DNA of 32,839 nt from Pseudomonadota bacterium (GTDB taxonomy: Bacteria > Bdellovibrionota_F > JAHFAK01 > JBDREC01): the NCBI GenBank assembly GCA_043820105.1, contig JBDREC010000097.1, forward strand, positions 1 through 32,839, written 5' to 3'. Shown piece by piece: positions 1-31,916 of this stretch (position 1 is the stretch's first letter; the number at the start of each line of letters is the position of its first letter). The notes beneath the pieces are model-generated. The model was given only the letters and a program-made list of their open reading frames with translations. It was not told the origin of the DNA and ran no database searches. The position numbers and the translations under genes were made by a program.

Positions 1-9
1 CCTAGTCAT
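1..9 (-). CDS. 5' end of an unidentified gene running off the window (Met-Thr-Arg...)
   Basis: ATG at 9-7 on the minus strand, preceded by a purine-rich RBS (GAAGGGGG, + strand 16-23). Only 3 codons are visible. Confidence 0.55.
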
Positions 10-24
10 AATTAACCCCCTTCT

Positions 25-255
25 TAAGCTTTGTGACCTTTGAGTATCCCTACTGCTCAATTATGCCTTAGCACCTGGATCATGGTTTCTCCTTCTAGCT
101 GTTTCACCATTGCTGATGACCCTGGCTAAAATTCGATGCTAAGTTTATCGGTTCTTGCCGACACAATTTATTAAGTACCCAGCGAACTGTTTACTTAACC
201 AGTGTGGACCTTTTATCAGGCCTAACTACCTCTTAGCTACTCCCCCCTGCCTTGT
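25..255 (-). ncRNA. Putative structured leader RNA or ncRNA, family not recognised
   Basis: About 9 helices can be paired by eye, including nested long-range stems (59-67/160-168, 67-75/135-143, 93-99/125-131), a GCAA-capped hairpin (104-119) and a UUCG-capped hairpin (171-198). It is more GC-rich than neighbouring intergenic DNA and lies between a sigma70-type promoter and an RBS. Confidence 0.65.
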
Positions 256-262
256 AAGATAA

Positions 263-291
263 CTTATAAGCAAACAATTTACATTTGTCAA
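263..291 (-). promoter_or_regulatory. Sigma70-type promoter
   Basis: Minus strand reads TTGACA (291-286), 17 bp, TATAAG (268-263). Confidence 0.7.
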
Positions 292-307
292 CAATTATTT
301 CATATTA

Positions 308-380
308 TTTTCACATAATCGTCACAATTGAATGATTTCAATATGTTGTGTTGTCACTTTTTTTTTCACAATTCCGTCAC
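308..380. promoter_or_regulatory. Direct-repeat protein-binding sites flanking an IHF-like site
   Basis: TTTTCACA-N5-GTCAC at 308-325 and 363-380, an extra TGTCAC at 352-357, and TTTCAATATGTTG (336-348), close to the IHF consensus WATCAANNNNTTR. Confidence 0.4.
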
Positions 381-665
381 TTACAGGGTAAGGTTTTAGA
401 TGCATGACATTGTTTTTCTTTGCTGTTCAGCTGTGCTTGGCTTATTGCTTGCCATTAAGCTATTGTTGCTTGCTAACATGTGCCATAATACGGTTATCTA
501 GATCGCTTGTTTTCTGCTTCTGTTTATTCAATACGACTTAACGTACGTTTTAAAATAATCAATAAACAACAATTAATAATTAATATGGAAGAAATACTAA
601 TTCTCTTTTTTTTGTTCTCTTGAGCTCTTGTTCTCCAATAATTTTATTTGGATGTTGTTTTATTT

Positions 666-698
666 AAACACAGAGTCACAGGGGACGCAGAGAGAAAA
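666..698. repeat. CACAGAG-type short repeat element
   Basis: aaacacagagtcacaggggacgcagagag; related copies at 8799-8829 (inverted) and 8935-8961. Confidence 0.6.
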
Positions 699-733
699 AA
701 CACATGATCTTTATGAATTTTGGCTTAGGATTT

Positions 734-1243
734 TTAGTCTTCTATACTATTACCTAAGGAACCAGATTTATATGCATCGCCACTGCCTGTTTTATCTCTT
801 CTGAAGAACTGACCATATTCGCCTCTTGTTCCATCATCATCTAAATCTTGCCAAACAATTATTGCACCATTAGTGGTGGGGTCAAAAGCTCCATTTGTAC
901 AATCAACTGCAGCTCCTGAATAAACATCTTGATCTGGAATATAGCCTATAATTTTAAAACCATTAGTATCATTTGCAAATGCTGATTGTGAACCAGATAA
1001 CTTATTTCCATTTAGAACATTGACATCTTGCGTTGGAACAGCTGATAGAATTGAATGAAATCTTGCATTATCAATATTGTAATCTGCTTCTGCTGCAAAG
1101 ATTCCATTTACCATTGAATTAACTTCTGATTTTTTTGATTTCTTGATGTAAGACATAAAGCTAGGAATAGCAATTGCTGCTAAAATTCCTATGATTGCTA
1201 CTACAATCATGAGTTCAACTAGGGTAAAGCCTTTTTTCTTCAT
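734..1243 (-). CDS. pilA: Type IV pilin (prepilin, PilA-like)
   Basis: [27 protein letters not shown] class III signal / N-methylation motif with Glu5; AAGGAG RBS. Confidence 0.9.
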
Positions 1244-1408: not shown

Positions 1409-3049
1409 TTAGAGTATCATTTCCTTAATATCACTATCAACATCTGAAATGCCTGAAATACCAAAGTTTTCAACTAAAACATTTGCAACATTTCTTGATA
1501 AAAAGGCTGGAAGAGTTGGGCCTAGTTTAATGTTTTTTACACCCAGATGTAAAAGAGCAAGCAAAACAATTACTGCTTTTTGTTCATACCAGGCAATATT
1601 ATAAACTACTGGAAGGTCATTGATATCATTTAGTTCAAAAACTTCTTTTAGTTTTAAAGCTGTTACTGCCAAAGAATATGAATCATTGCATTGTCCAGCA
1701 TCCAGCACTCTTGGAATTCCGCCAATATCGCCAAGATTTAATTTATTGTATCTATACTTGGCGCAGCCTGCAGTTAAAATAACTGTGTCTTTAGGAAGTT
1801 TTTGTGCAAATTCACTATAATAATCTCTGCCTTTTTGCCTTCCATCACAACCTGCCATAACAACAAACTTCTTAATTGCTCCTGATTTTACTGCCTCTAC
1901 TACTTTATCAGCTAATTCCAAAACCTGATTATGAGCAAAGCCACCAATAATTTCACCTTCTTCAATTTGCTTTGGAGCTTCACATTTTTTTGCTAGTTCA
2001 ATAATTTCGGAAAAATCTTTTTTGCCTTTTTTATTGTCTGAGATATGCTTTATTCCTTCAAAGCCAGCTACACCAGTTGTAAAAAGCCTGTCCTTATATG
2101 AATCTTTTGGGGGAACAATGCAGTTTGTAGTCATAAGAATTGGGCCCTTAAAACTTTCAAATTCTTCTTTTTGCTTCCACCATGCATTGCCATAGTTTCC
2201 AACAAAATGACCATATTTTTTGAATTTAGGATAATAATTAGCAGGAAGCATTTCACTGTGAGTGTATACATCGACACCACTATCTTTGCTTTGCTCAAGA
2301 AGCATTTCCATATCTTTAAGATCATGACCTGAAATTAATATTCCAGGATTATTTCTTGTACCAATATTTACTTTTGTTATTTCTGGATGACCATAGGTTT
2401 TAGTATTTGCCTCATCTAATAAGGCCATAACAGAAACACCATATTTACCTGCATCTAAAACCATAGCAGTCAAATCATCACCTGACAAAGAATCATTTGT
2501 AGTTGCGATTAATGCTCTTTCCATAAAAGAAACAATTTCATCATTCTTGTAATCTAGCACATCAGCGTGCTGATAATATGCTGCTATTCCCTTGATACCA
2601 TAAATTAAAAGCTCTCTTAAAGAACGCACATCAGCATTTTCTGTAGCCATTGGCGAAACAGTTTTCGCCTTTTCCTGGAAGACATTTTCACTTCCATGCC
2701 AACGAATTGAATCATGTGAAGTCTCATCAAAAGAAAAACCTTTTTCCATTAATTCAGATTTTAATTCATCTCGAAGTGAAATAGCTTCATTAATAAATTT
2801 TGTGAAATCAACTCTATTAAAATTTGCATTTGTAATAGTTGAAAATAAAGCCTTAACAAGAAATGACTTTGCTTGACTTGAATTTATTCCAAATTCTCTT
2901 GCTTTTTGATTAACATGTGCAAGTCCCTTCAAACTATAGACCAATAGATCTTGCAAATTTGCAGTTTCAAATGTTTTTCCACAAACACCATTAATAGTAC
3001 AGCCTTCAGATTTCGCTGTCTCTTGACATTGATAACAGAACATATTCAT
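1409..3049 (-). CDS. hcp: Hybrid cluster protein (hydroxylamine / NO reductase, prismane)
   Basis: N-terminal [11 protein letters not shown]...GVCGK Fe-S motif, [32 protein letters not shown] and WYEQKAV; 546 aa. Confidence 0.97.
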
Positions 3050-3398: not shown

Positions 3399-3430
3399 CT
3401 TGTTTTCTTGTTCCCTTGTTCTCTTGTTCT
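3399..3430. repeat. Octamer tandem repeat (CTTGTTCT)x4
   Basis: cttgtttt cttgttcc cttgttct cttgttct immediately before an RBS; related units at 611-636. Confidence 0.75.
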
Positions 3431-3447
3431 CTAAAAAGGAGATCACA

Positions 3448-3852
3448 ATGATAAAAAGTGCCCAATTAGGTGAAGAACTCATAATTATCGTGCCAAATGA
3501 AATTGGAGTATTATCTGAAATCTCATCTTACATCGCGAAAAAATCTGTTAGCATCTTGGCTATCAGTGCAAGCACAACATCCAACATGGTAGTTTTTAAA
3601 TTATTAACTGATAATAACGAATCTGCAAAAGAAATATTAAAAGAGAATGGATACAATGTTGGAAAAAGAGAAATAGTAATGGTTAATCTGGAGAACAAAT
3701 CTGGAGCCCTAGAATATGTTTGCAGCAAACTATCTGAAAACAAAATCGACTTTTTCTATCTATATTGTTCAACCTGCTGTGGTGATTGTCCTGCAATGCT
3801 AGTTTTTTCTTCAACTAACAATGAAAATGCAGTAGAATTACTTAATAAATAA
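3448..3852 (+). CDS. Tandem ACT-domain protein
   Basis: Two ACT repeats (VPNEIGVLSEIS; LENKSGALEYVCSKLSENKIDF). Start moved to ATG 3448 behind AAGGAG; the track's N-terminal extension translates the octamer repeat. Confidence 0.85.
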   Translation: MIKSAQLGEELIIIVPNEIGVLSEISSYIAKKSVSILAISASTTSNMVVFKLLTDNNESAKEILKENGYNVGKREIVMVNLENKSGALEYVCSKLSENKIDFFYLYCSTCCGDCPAMLVFSSTNNENAVELLNK

Positions 3853-3936
3853 TAGACCCAAAGTTCTTAAAAAATAGCTAGAAAATATTCTTAAAAAATG
3901 ATATAATACAAATGTATATTCTAATTGGAGGGGTGC

Positions 3937-5517
3937 ATGTACTCAAAAGTATTAATTATGGCTATCCTGCTGATATCATTAATATTGTATAATTGTGGTC
4001 CTCAGGGAATTCGTGCCAACTTAGATGATCTTGAATCATCAGAAAAAGAAACCCAAGAAAATGAGCAAAATTCTGAGTCAGAAAGCCTATCAAACCTGGA
4101 AGTAAACAACCTTACAGAAGAAGATTTATTAGAGTTACTAGAAGACTCAGGGCTGGAACTGGGCGATGTTGTTACTGAAACAGAAACTATCACTACCCTA
4201 GAAGAAGTTGAGGTTGAAGTGGAATACAGTGAATCCTACCTTTATGATTGGACTATAACTATTGGAGGAAATGGTACTGACCTTGCTTCTTCCTCTATTA
4301 TTGACAGTGAAAACAACCTATATATCGCAGGTTATTATACATATAACGTTGATTTTGATTATGGAGATGATGAAGATGAACATGTAGCTGATTTATCTAT
4401 CGCTTATCAAGAATTATTTGTAACAAAAATAACAGCAGCTGGTGAATATGGGTGGACGAAAACTGTAGACGGAGGAGTTTATTCAAAAGTTTATTCAATG
4501 GCAATAGATGATAATGATAATATTTTTATTGCAGGAGCGTATGCGGGAACTATTAATTTTAATCCATCTGGAATTGAAGACTCACACACATCTGAAGCCG
4601 AATTAGATGGTTTTTTGATGAAGCTTGAAAGTGATGGCAGCTATGCTTATACAAAAACATTTTCATGTTCAGGAAATTTAATAGCAAGGAGTGTTAATGT
4701 AGATACTTCAGGAAATGCATATATTAGTGGAGAATTTGAAAAAACAGCAGACTTTGACTTTACAGAATCAACTGATGAACTTAGTTCACGAGGAGACTCA
4801 AAAGATATATTTATTTCAAAAATCAACAGCAATGGAACTTATGCATGGACCACGAAAAGGGGTGGAAATTATGATGAAGTAGCTTATTCTATAGCAATTA
4901 ACAGTGAAAATGACATTATTGCTGCAGGTATGATGGAAAATGAAGAAGAAGATGCCGGGGACTATATTTTCCTATTAAAAATATCCTCAGACGGTAATTT
5001 TAACTGGATGACTACCTATGATGGAACATTTTGTAATCAACCAGACAGCTTATCAATAGATTCAAGAGACAATATTTATTTAGCAGTTGTAGGCCAAATG
5101 ATCATGAAACTTAATTCAGATGGTGATAAATTAATTGAAATTACCTTGATTGATGGTGGTGGAATGTCTGTTGCTATAGACAATGAAGACAACATATATA
5201 TTACTGGATATTTTACTGAGGAGCACACCTTTTATGATGGTGAAGAAGAAGACGTACACACCTCTTTAGGAGCTAGTGATATTTTTATAACAAAATATAA
5301 CTCAGACCTTGAATACCTTTGGACAGAAAGCATTGGATCAACAGGTATTGATTCCCCTCAATCAATTTCTGTTGATGCAAATAAAAACTTATATGTAGTT
5401 GGTGGTTTCTATGGAACAATTGACTTTGATTTTACTGATGCAGAGGATGAAATAACTTCAACTAATGATAATTTAGATATTTTTATTTTAAAAGCAAGCC
5501 TTGATGATAGTGAATAA
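3937..5517 (+). CDS. Acidic lipoprotein with SBBP-type beta-propeller repeats
   Basis: Signal peptide ending LYNC; repeated (I/V)D..NN(I/L)YI.G.F...DFD......DIFI.K....G...W units; GGAGGG RBS before ATG 3937. Confidence 0.8.
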   Translation: MYSKVLIMAILLISLILYNCGPQGIRANLDDLESSEKETQENEQNSESESLSNLEVNNLTEEDLLELLEDSGLELGDVVTETETITTLEEVEVEVEYSESYLYDWTITIGGNGTDLASSSIIDSENNLYIAGYYTYNVDFDYGDDEDEHVADLSIAYQELFVTKITAAGEYGWTKTVDGGVYSKVYSMAIDDNDNIFIAGAYAGTINFNPSGIEDSHTSEAELDGFLMKLESDGSYAYTKTFSCSGNLIARSVNVDTSGNAYISGEFEKTADFDFTESTDELSSRGDSKDIFISKINSNGTYAWTTKRGGNYDEVAYSIAINSENDIIAAGMMENEEEDAGDYIFLLKISSDGNFNWMTTYDGTFCNQPDSLSIDSRDNIYLAVVGQMIMKLNSDGDKLIEITLIDGGGMSVAIDNEDNIYITGYFTEEHTFYDGEEEDVHTSLGASDIFITKYNSDLEYLWTESIGSTGIDSPQSISVDANKNLYVVGGFYGTIDFDFTDAEDEITSTNDNLDIFILKASLDDSE

Positions 5518-31841: not shown

Positions 31842-31916
31842 CGGGGCGTAGCGCAGCCCGGGTAGCGCACTTGCATGGGGTGTAAGTGGTCGCTGGTTCA
31901 AATCCAGTCGCCCCGA
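31842..31916 (+). tRNA. tRNA-Pro(GGG), CCA not encoded
   Basis: Acceptor CGGGGCG/CGCCCCG-A, D arm GCGC/GCGC, anticodon arm CTTGC-ATGGGGT-GTAAG and T arm GCTGG-TTCAAAT-CCAGT. Confidence 0.96.

Follow-up and report, generated by a model that had tools for sequence, protein, structure and literature searches.

Nucleotides 255 to 1 on the minus strand of the window very probably make up the 5′ quarter of a gene that stands on its own and specifies a highly structured non-coding RNA of ∼1.15–1.2 kb. The window is a stretch of 32,839 nt of bacterial DNA that corresponds to positions 1–32839 of contig C97 of its source assembly and starts at the first base of that contig. The product seems to be a large bacterial RNA not described before. 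Contig C97 breaks inside the gene, which is one of four paralogous genes in this genome, two of them split by the assembly. The original prediction, drawn from the window sequence, described the same place as a structured leader of ∼245 nt between a consensus promoter and the ribosome-binding site (RBS) and ATG of a protein gene beyond position 1, and proposed either a riboswitch or an RNA partner of that protein. A structured RNA does follow a strong promoter here, and covariation backs most of its multibranch domain. The leader length of ∼245 nt, by contrast, is a product of truncation; the contig simply ends there.

Four paralogous genes, two of them split by the assembly

The source assembly (G000) measures 3.81 Mb in 113 contigs, with 32% GC, a completeness of 92.9% and a contamination of 2.2%, and contains no contig shorter than ∼2 kb. 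A BLAST search of window positions 1–700 against this assembly returned three further places, on contigs C28, C4 and C76. C28:1–558 is 91% identical to the 5′ region of the window over 559 nt and likewise lies at the very start of its contig; C4:54403–54626 and C76:31157–31293 are more distant matches. R1, a covariance model of the 5′ domain of the RNA, matches exactly four places in the genome with scores of 208–222 bits, and on the window it covers positions 52–260 with 220 bits.

Two of the copies are complete, C4:54524–55700 and C76:31172–29990, each running ∼1.15–1.2 kb from promoter to terminator, and their RNA stretches are 70% identical to one another. When an nhmmer profile is built from the alignment of these two, window positions 259–10 and C28 positions 259–9 match profile positions 2–254, and two other segments located at contig starts, C87:22–228 and C15:22–227, match profile positions 976–1193. 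The latter pieces end in ...CCUGUCUUUAUA, followed by a GC-rich hairpin and a T-run. Because of these placements we assign the window and C28 to the 5′ ∼255 nt, and C87 and C15 to the 3′ ∼220–230 nt, of two near-identical genes; the middle ∼700 nt of both split copies is missing from the assembly. In line with the R1 and nhmmer matches, the 5′ domain occupies 1..255 (minus strand) of the window. Transcription probably begins near A255, and the RNA sequence leaves the contig at base 1; for the C4 copy, one contig from an RNA library has as its first base the A that corresponds to window A255.

Promoters and upstream elements

Direct reading of the minus strand confirms the predicted promoter, with a −35 hexamer TTGACA at 286..291, a 17-nt spacer and a −10 hexamer TATAAG at 263..268. 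The TTGACA-17-TATAAG arrangement is identical in all four paralogous copies; a consensus promoter scanner omits the site because it demands a T at the last −10 position. All four promoters share an upstream element, TGTGAC-N5-TGTGAAA (309..326, minus strand), which is followed by TGAAA and then by the −35 box at an 11-bp phase, inside an A/T-rich, UP-like stretch. This 18-nt motif occurs four times in the 3.8-Mb assembly, each time at one of these promoters, and may represent an activator site or an UP element. From its sequence, the promoter is likely to be very strong and is possibly activator-dependent. The upstream regions of the four copies also have in common a GGAAUUGUGAAAAAAAAAGUGAC-like block (353..375, minus strand) ∼100–120 nt upstream of the start, for which a function can only be presumed.

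Coding potential and flanking genes

The RBS and ATG of the original prediction can be read in the window, where a run of GGGGG precedes an ATG at 9–7 and the frame continues ATG ACT AGG up to the contig edge, but they are not conserved in the complete paralogs. In the four-copy alignment, window AAGAAGGGGGUUAAUUAUGACUAGG aligns with CAAAGGAUGUUAGCUGUAUUAGGG in C4 and AAAAGGGUGUUAGUUUUAUUUUGU in C76, and the aligned positions of these two copies read ...AAAGGAUGUUAGCUGUAUUAGGG and ...AAAGGGUGUUAGUUUUAUUUUGU; neither has an ATG. The supposed start region (1..23, minus strand), which aligns to GGAUGUUAGCUGUAUUAGGG in C4 and GGGUGUUAGUUUUAUUUUGU in C76, is instead the 5′ side of the helix that comes next in the RNA. 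In C4 and C76 its counterpart pairs with GUUAAC/GCUAAC ∼30 nt downstream (alignment columns 247–252 with 278–283).

Beyond this point the complete paralogs run on for ∼900 nt without an open reading frame (ORF), and the gene beginning MTR that was expected past position 1 has no counterpart there. The ∼1.15–1.2-kb C4 and C76 stretches hold no ORF of at least 80 codons, the longest sense frame in them being 46 codons, and mismatches between the two number 125, 123 and 120 at the three codon positions. At the end of the C4 copy a terminator scanner recognizes a hairpin of 17 pairs with a T-run, and a hairpin with a T-run can be read by eye at the end of the C76 copy. ARAGORN finds no tRNA or tmRNA gene in loci L001, L002, L003 and L017.

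The flanking genes differ at every copy. The upstream neighbor is pilin-like for the window copy and CoA-ligase-like, transporter-like, a peroxiredoxin and a redoxin for the others; the downstream genes likewise all differ, and those in C15 and in G003, a related genome described below, are convergent with the RNA gene. Because the flanking genes differ and two downstream genes are convergent, the RNA does not appear to be cis-regulatory or to have a fixed protein neighbor. No reverse transcriptase, maturase, transposase or nuclease is found among the ORFs listed within ∼3 kb, four of these neighbors having been assigned by Pfam and the rest by eye.

These observations make it highly improbable that a protein gene starting MTR lies past the contig edge and that the window encodes its cis-regulatory leader or riboswitch of ∼250 nt, or an RNA that partners its product in the manner of a guide. 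Such a gene would account for the purine-rich stretch and ATG at window 20–7 and for an alternative pairing specific to the window-type sequence, and a frame of up to ∼240 codons is possible by sequence within the unassembled ∼700-nt middle. Both flanks of that gap, however, are homologous to non-coding copies, neither complete paralog has the ATG or its frame at the corresponding position, both are free of ORFs over the ∼1.15 kb up to the terminator or U-tract, and the 5′ end of the window RNA pairs with the 3′ end found on C87 and C15. No Rfam riboswitch matches. A non-coding RNA serving an off-window protein such as a reverse transcriptase or an RNA-guided enzyme likewise finds no support, since the neighbors differ and none of that kind is among the listed ORFs.

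A further reading starts from the shortest frames and takes the transcript as an mRNA, or as a dual-function RNA, that encodes at least one very small protein. Within the multibranch domain of the window, the near-invariant segment GGAGAAAnnAUGAUC (78..92, minus strand; 13 of 15 positions identical in all four copies) resembles a Shine–Dalgarno sequence followed by a start codon, GGAG-N5/6-AUGAUC, and the same arrangement is present in C28, C4 and C76. The mini-frame that follows spans only 5–8 codons as read by eye (8, 8 and 5), its residues differ among the copies, the substitutions show no codon periodicity and the segment lies inside covarying helices. We therefore regard a small-protein mRNA as very unlikely.

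Structure of the full-length RNA

The complete copies fold far better than dinucleotide-shuffled controls. The C4 sequence reaches −339.7 against −276.0 ± 6.9 for the shuffles (z = −9.16) and the C76 sequence −335.6 against −252.6 ± 9.7 (z = −8.55), with none of 25 shuffles as good in either case. RNAalifold on C4 plus C76 gives 292 consensus pairs in 48 helices, 63 of which are changed on both sides, compared with 2–11 when partners are slid by 1–3 columns; with such slid partners only 37–49% of cells pair. Because this consensus derives from the same two sequences that are scored, we also folded one copy alone and read its pairs in the other. When C4 is folded, 290 of 342 pairs still pair in C76 (125–161 when slid), and double changes keep pairing in 59 of 78 cases (17–27 of 40–52 when slid). 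The reverse test, with C76 folded and read in C4, retains 297 of 380 pairs and 61 of 87 double changes.

The original prediction had remarked that mismatches in the window helices are mostly G-U on this strand. G-U pairs are common in the full-length RNA as well; of the 292 consensus pairs, 36 are G-U in one complete copy and 48 in the other. The RNA strand can be set on this basis, because the same pairs would be A-C mismatches on the other strand.

The first ∼25 and last ∼25 nt of the RNA pair with one another, AAGGCAGG with CCUGCCUU and then AAUAGC with GUUAUU, so that the molecule is closed on itself. In the window, the 5′ strand AAGGCAGG of this terminal helix lies at 246..253 (minus strand) and its partner CCUGUCUU at the start of C87 and C15. 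The duplex energies are −23.7 kcal/mol for C4, −27.6 kcal/mol for C76 and −29.8 kcal/mol for the G003 relative, with none of 200 shuffles as good in each case. Joining the 5′ end of the window or C28 to the 3′ strand of C87 or C15 yields −26.1 kcal/mol, against a shuffled mean of −9.3 and again with none of 200 as good.

The decamer AUGAUCUUUG, which goes with the GGAG-N5/6-AUGAUC segment described above, recurs near the 3′ end of C4 and C76 and pairs there with AAAGGUCA. A candidate kissing interaction between the loop of an invariant hairpin (AAUCAA/AGUCAA) and UGAUU/UGACU ∼100 nt upstream seemed compensatory on inspection but was rejected; the two sites are 3 columns out of register.

The 5′ domain

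Taken alone, the local 262 nt of the window are only modestly more structured than expected, with a minimum free energy of −66.7 against −58.2 ± 4.2 for shuffles (z = −2.0; 6 of 200 as good). Across the four copies, the 5′ domain has 45 consensus pairs, 21 with double changes. The helices drawn in the original prediction, scored as 57 pairs on the four-copy alignment A3 after slight trimming at overlaps, pair in 85.4% of cells compared with 33–46% when slid, and 22 pairs are changed on both sides compared with 2–7; in these percentages the window rows pair by construction.

Four of the predicted helices hold up well. The hairpin UUAAGUA-CAG(UUCG)CUG-UACUUAA (171..198, minus strand) is paired in 90% of cells, with 6 of 10 pairs changed on both sides. 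The multibranch domain (59..168, minus strand) is closed by AAUUGUG/CAUAAUU, which is 100% paired with one U-A to A-U swap, and contains three inner helices and a GNRA-type loop; the inner helices are 79–93% paired with 3–5 double changes each. Among these, CUUAGCAUC/GGUGCUAAG (92%, 5 double changes) and UUUUAGC/GCUAGAA (93%, 5 double changes) are well supported, and the hairpin UCAUCA(GCAA)UGGUGA is partly so (79%, 3 double changes). The UCGG/CCGA helix is also partly supported, at 86%. The remaining three, UAGCUA/UAGUUA (71%), GGCCU/AGGUC (65%) and UUGAG/CUCAA (75%), are not conserved in C4 and C76, and part of the UAGCUA segment pairs instead with the 3′ end of the RNA in the long-range terminal helix. 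The switch-like alternative pairing GGGUCAU/AUGAUCC can be formed in the window and C28 but not, as read from the alignment, in C4 and C76, which keep AUGAUC and have AGUCAAUG in place of its partner.

Duplicated modules and a relative in another family

A second covariance model, R2, covers the most conserved ∼170 nt of the RNA, referred to here as the core module. Just 3′ of the core, R2 detects a second, similar module at L001 1385–1539 (38.5 bits) and L002 817–663 (38.7 bits), with E ∼3e-7. Both C4 and C76 thus contain two tandem three-way-junction modules of ∼160 nt, and direct repeats at a spacing of ∼696 nt agree with a module duplication. Judged by sequence, the RNA appears to have grown by duplication of a three-way-junction module. 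In the first module, a 44-nt hairpin stretch is identical in C4 and C76 except for one loop base.

The phylum sample comprised four species-level genomes (G000–G003), among which R1 matches in G000 alone, at its four places. R2, however, matches over its full length at C276:1230–1396 of G003 (66.8 bits, E 7.5e-10), a genome of 4.6 Mb and 86% completeness from the same class and another family. The G003 RNA stretch is ∼950 nt long with ∼55% GC, has no gene-like frame and folds with z = −6.18 (none of 20 shuffles as good). It begins CUAUUUCAGGCAGCAAGG, where the G000 counterpart reads CUAUCUUACAAGGCAGGG, and ends with CCUUGAUGCC and a U-run, pairing with its own 5′ end. In a core alignment of four rows (C4, C76, G003 and the second C76 module) that was fitted to the model, 29 of 45 pairs carry changes on both sides, compared with 3–6 for slid partners, and the share of cells that pair is 96.6%, compared with 35–43%. 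MAFFT and alifold analysis of the G003 5′ region together with the G000 5′ domains gave an unreliable alignment, and homology of the 5′ domain to G003 is suggested only for the first ∼20 nt and the terminal helix.

R2 has no match in 147 genomes of other phyla. Pattern searches were similarly unproductive. The pattern ACAAGGCAGGG-N60-90-ATAAANTGTGTC found one place in the genome collection (L013, in a Xanthobacteraceae metagenome-assembled genome), which lacks an R1 match and was taken as chance; this pattern is too specific to G000 and would miss G003. In metagenome contigs, GGAGAAANNATGATC-N9-14-GCATANTTGAG had no match, and the core pattern CGAAAGGTTANTCAAAACCTATG had one (L014), a high-GC intergenic place that also lacks an R1 match and was attributed to chance. 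Three patterns gave no match in viral contigs, and BLAST found none in phage and plasmid records.

The number of copies and the contig breaks at them would also be expected of a non-autonomous mobile or retro-element RNA, such as an ORF-less group II intron, a retron-like RNA or an insertion-sequence derivative, that had spread to four sites. As duplicated genes would, however, the copies have diverged and each keeps a conserved promoter and terminator; no Rfam model of an intron, a retron or an insertion-sequence RNA matches at E up to 1; and neither mobile-element enzymes among the listed neighboring ORFs nor phage, plasmid or viral-contig matches were found. A mobile element is the least probable of the alternatives we considered.

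Occurrence in RNA libraries

The C4 stretch, whole or in part, is contained in 12 sequencing runs from eight studies, 11 of which are RNA libraries. A 15-Mbase groundwater metatranscriptome contains 74% of the sampled words and two more runs contain 48–49%. Four RNA runs from four studies (X1, X2, X5 and X9) were compared with C4:52980–57249 (L004). X1 and X2 hold near-identical contigs of the C4 copy, and loose ends that match C76 sequence show that the C76 copy is present too. The contigs of X5, a run labelled wetland, and of X9 are 80–94% identical and together span RNA positions ∼27–1130; because of this identity range we ascribe them to relatives in the RNA libraries of other habitats.

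All four runs peak on the invariant hairpin, and the C4 flanks (L004 1–1430 and 2718–4270) are nearly without contig cover, the most being seen in X2 at a depth of at most 3.2. Word depths inside the RNA in X2 range from 537 to 24,130, although genes cannot be ranked by contig depth or by a lack of cover. X1 and X2 also have loose ends flanking the core that agree with neither C4 nor C76 and that the assembly does not contain. These could come from the unassembled middle of the window-type copies, and equally from a relative. A variant table from the RNA runs, covering 40 of 243 differences with partners possibly hidden, scored mostly as broken pairs and was set aside.

Comparison with known RNAs and possible function

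Rfam includes OLE, GOLLD, ROOL, HEARO, raiA, 6S, RNase P, tmRNA, group I and II introns and the Csr/Rsm RNAs. At the gathering threshold, Rfam 15 reports a single feature in the window, a tRNA at 31842–31916, in agreement with the earlier failure to place the RNA in a known family. Window positions 1–450 gave four chance-level matches of at most 19 bits at E up to 10; the C4, C76 and C28 loci gave no relevant match and no intron model at E up to 1; and the G003 locus gave none. A literature search at the level of abstracts found no description of this RNA. It has the attributes of the large, ornate non-coding RNAs: it is longer than 500 nt (∼1,150 nt in G000 and ∼950 nt in G003), it is non-coding, its multi-domain fold covaries and it occurs beyond one genome. 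Apart from rRNA and introns, bacterial non-coding RNAs are not known to exceed 1 kb.

OLE adjoins oapA. Three reports describe OLE RNA as ∼600 nt long and forming a ribonucleoprotein (RNP) (PMC9723947), as exceptionally highly expressed (PMC3413148) and as membrane-associated (PMC10898510). The new RNA resembles OLE in that it is a bacterial RNA that is large, non-coding and conserved, consists of several domains and has no established chemistry, but it has no Rfam match to OLE, is about twice as long, has four gene copies and no linked partner gene, and belongs to another phylum that is seldom sampled. GOLLD and ROOL are often linked to prophages or tRNAs. Like them, giant ornate RNAs without known function, the new RNA has a closed, multi-helix architecture; it differs in being longer, in lacking an Rfam match and in its absence from the phage and plasmid records and viral contigs searched. 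By cryo-electron microscopy, GOLLD and ROOL are reported to form RNA-only homo-oligomers (PMC12286853). OLE, GOLLD and ROOL are analogues of the new RNA, not relatives.

Other comparisons extend to housekeeping and regulatory RNAs. With rRNA, RNase P RNA, tmRNA and 6S RNA the new RNA shares multiple copies, a near-consensus promoter preceded by A/T-rich sequence, 5′ and 3′ ends that pair, genes bounded by terminators and presence in RNA libraries, but it matches none of their models and is not called as a tRNA or tmRNA. With riboswitches and 5′ leaders it shares a multibranch fold that lies close to the promoter, covaries and includes a GNRA loop; that fold, however, is one domain of a 1.2-kb RNA and no regulated ORF follows. 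The likeness to CsrB, RsmY and RsmZ lies in several paralogous RNA genes, each with its own promoter, here possibly activator-dependent, and in repeated modules, and the difference in a several-fold larger size, long invariant blocks, long-range helices and the lack of an Rfam match.

The last comparison raises the alternative that the same gene encodes a protein-titrating RNA in the manner of CsrB/RsmZ or 6S, whose modules soak up one RNA-binding protein under the control of a dedicated activator. The upstream element that the paralogous genes share and that is found nowhere else in the genome would fit such an RNA, as would the repeated modules, the many short repeated A-rich and GG motifs (GG-rich, A-flanked motifs are visible by eye) and the presence of the stretch in RNA libraries. 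CsrA (PF02599), on the other hand, has no match in G000, which is 92.9% complete, although control genomes do match; the long invariant blocks and elaborate covarying junctions resemble ribozyme and RNP RNAs more than sponges; and known sponge RNAs are several-fold smaller than ∼1.2 kb. We consider titration unlikely. The only classical RNA chaperone candidate among those sought is an Hfq/Sm-like match, at 25.6 bits below threshold, at G000:C19:36608–36763 (L015), inside a 254-codon open frame.

The features of the free-standing RNA gene suggest the following model. Each gene has a separate sigma-70-type promoter, close to consensus and accompanied by the upstream element specific to this family, and ends in an intrinsic terminator or U-tract. 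The RNA body consists of multi-helix domains, including the two tandem ∼160-nt modules, one of them bearing the invariant 44-nt hairpin. The RNA may then act in trans as a very abundant, nuclease-protected and stable molecule whose folded modules serve as a scaffold. We favor a trans-acting architectural RNA because the paired ends, the several gene copies and the long invariant junction sequences resemble those of stable functional RNAs. If the identity of the gene is as proposed, the core of an RNP or an assembly of RNA only, comparable to OLE, GOLLD and ROOL, would be the leading candidate, with a chance somewhat short of even. A protein-titrating regulator, by analogy with the sponges, would be considerably less probable; a ribozyme would be less probable again, and some other function about as improbable as a ribozyme.

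Several observations weigh against the proposal of a large, free-standing RNA gene or limit its reach. Either C87 or C15 could continue the window copy, and the middle of the window's own copy is unseen. The covariation comes from few sequences, two complete and two partial paralogs with one relative added for the core, and the consensus is scored on the sequences it came from. The terminator scanner lists no terminator for the C76 and G003 copies, the ends of which were read by eye. R1 does not match G003, and R1, R2 and BLAST find nothing in the order-level relatives G001 (96% complete) and G002 (81% complete). The RNA-run evidence consists of assembled contigs, which attest to presence in RNA libraries and not to strand, ends, level or proof of transcription, and DNA can occur in such libraries. 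The functional readings are inferences.

Other features of the window

Upstream of the RNA gene, the window encodes a pilin-like protein with an N-terminal methylation motif (734–1243, minus strand) and a Prismane/hybrid-cluster protein (1409–3049, minus strand), followed by an ACT-domain protein (3400–3852, plus strand) and a secreted beta-propeller (SBBP) repeat protein (3925–5517, plus strand), all assigned by Pfam. The tRNA gene reported by Rfam is 75 nt long and lies on the plus strand (56.2 bits).

A long imperfect palindrome of CACAGAG/CUCUGUG units sits between the pilin-like gene and the RNA promoter region at window ∼640–710. It is also present in C28 (L003 592–710), where it gives a false MIR173 match on both strands. 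An A/T-rich stretch of ∼35 nt with 7-nt periodicity, at window 548–585, recurs at more than 150 other places in the assembly, with matches of 80–97% identity in shifted registers on most contigs, and looks like a genome-wide intergenic heptamer repeat. The gene directly upstream of the RNA in the C76 copy (L012 2094–2747) and in the G003 homolog (L017 3–689) encodes a redoxin of the AhpC/TSA family. Since this holds for two of the five known upstream neighbors and the family is common, the linkage was counted as coincidence.

Implications

Large structured bacterial RNAs are rare, and the earlier classes, RNase P, tmRNA, OLE, GOLLD and ROOL, each opened work on RNA catalysis, RNPs or RNA-only assemblies. 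The RNA described here is kilobase-sized, closed and modular, has four gene copies, is present in RNA libraries from several environments and falls in no catalogued family, and it is a ready target for cryo-electron microscopy, probing and partner hunting. As its discovery at a contig end illustrates, a large RNA gene cut off by the edge of a contig can pass for a short leader. Metagenome-assembled genomes systematically break RNA genes that occur in several copies, and this RNA may have gone unnoticed for that reason. As a tentative and more far-reaching possibility, it could belong to an undescribed class of giant (∼1.0–1.2 kb) bacterial RNA, built from duplicated three-way-junction modules, encoded by several gene copies and very abundant in bacteria of groundwater and wetlands from a phylum that has hardly been sampled, and might there be a ribozyme or the core of a new RNA machine or self-assembling particle rather than a regulator.

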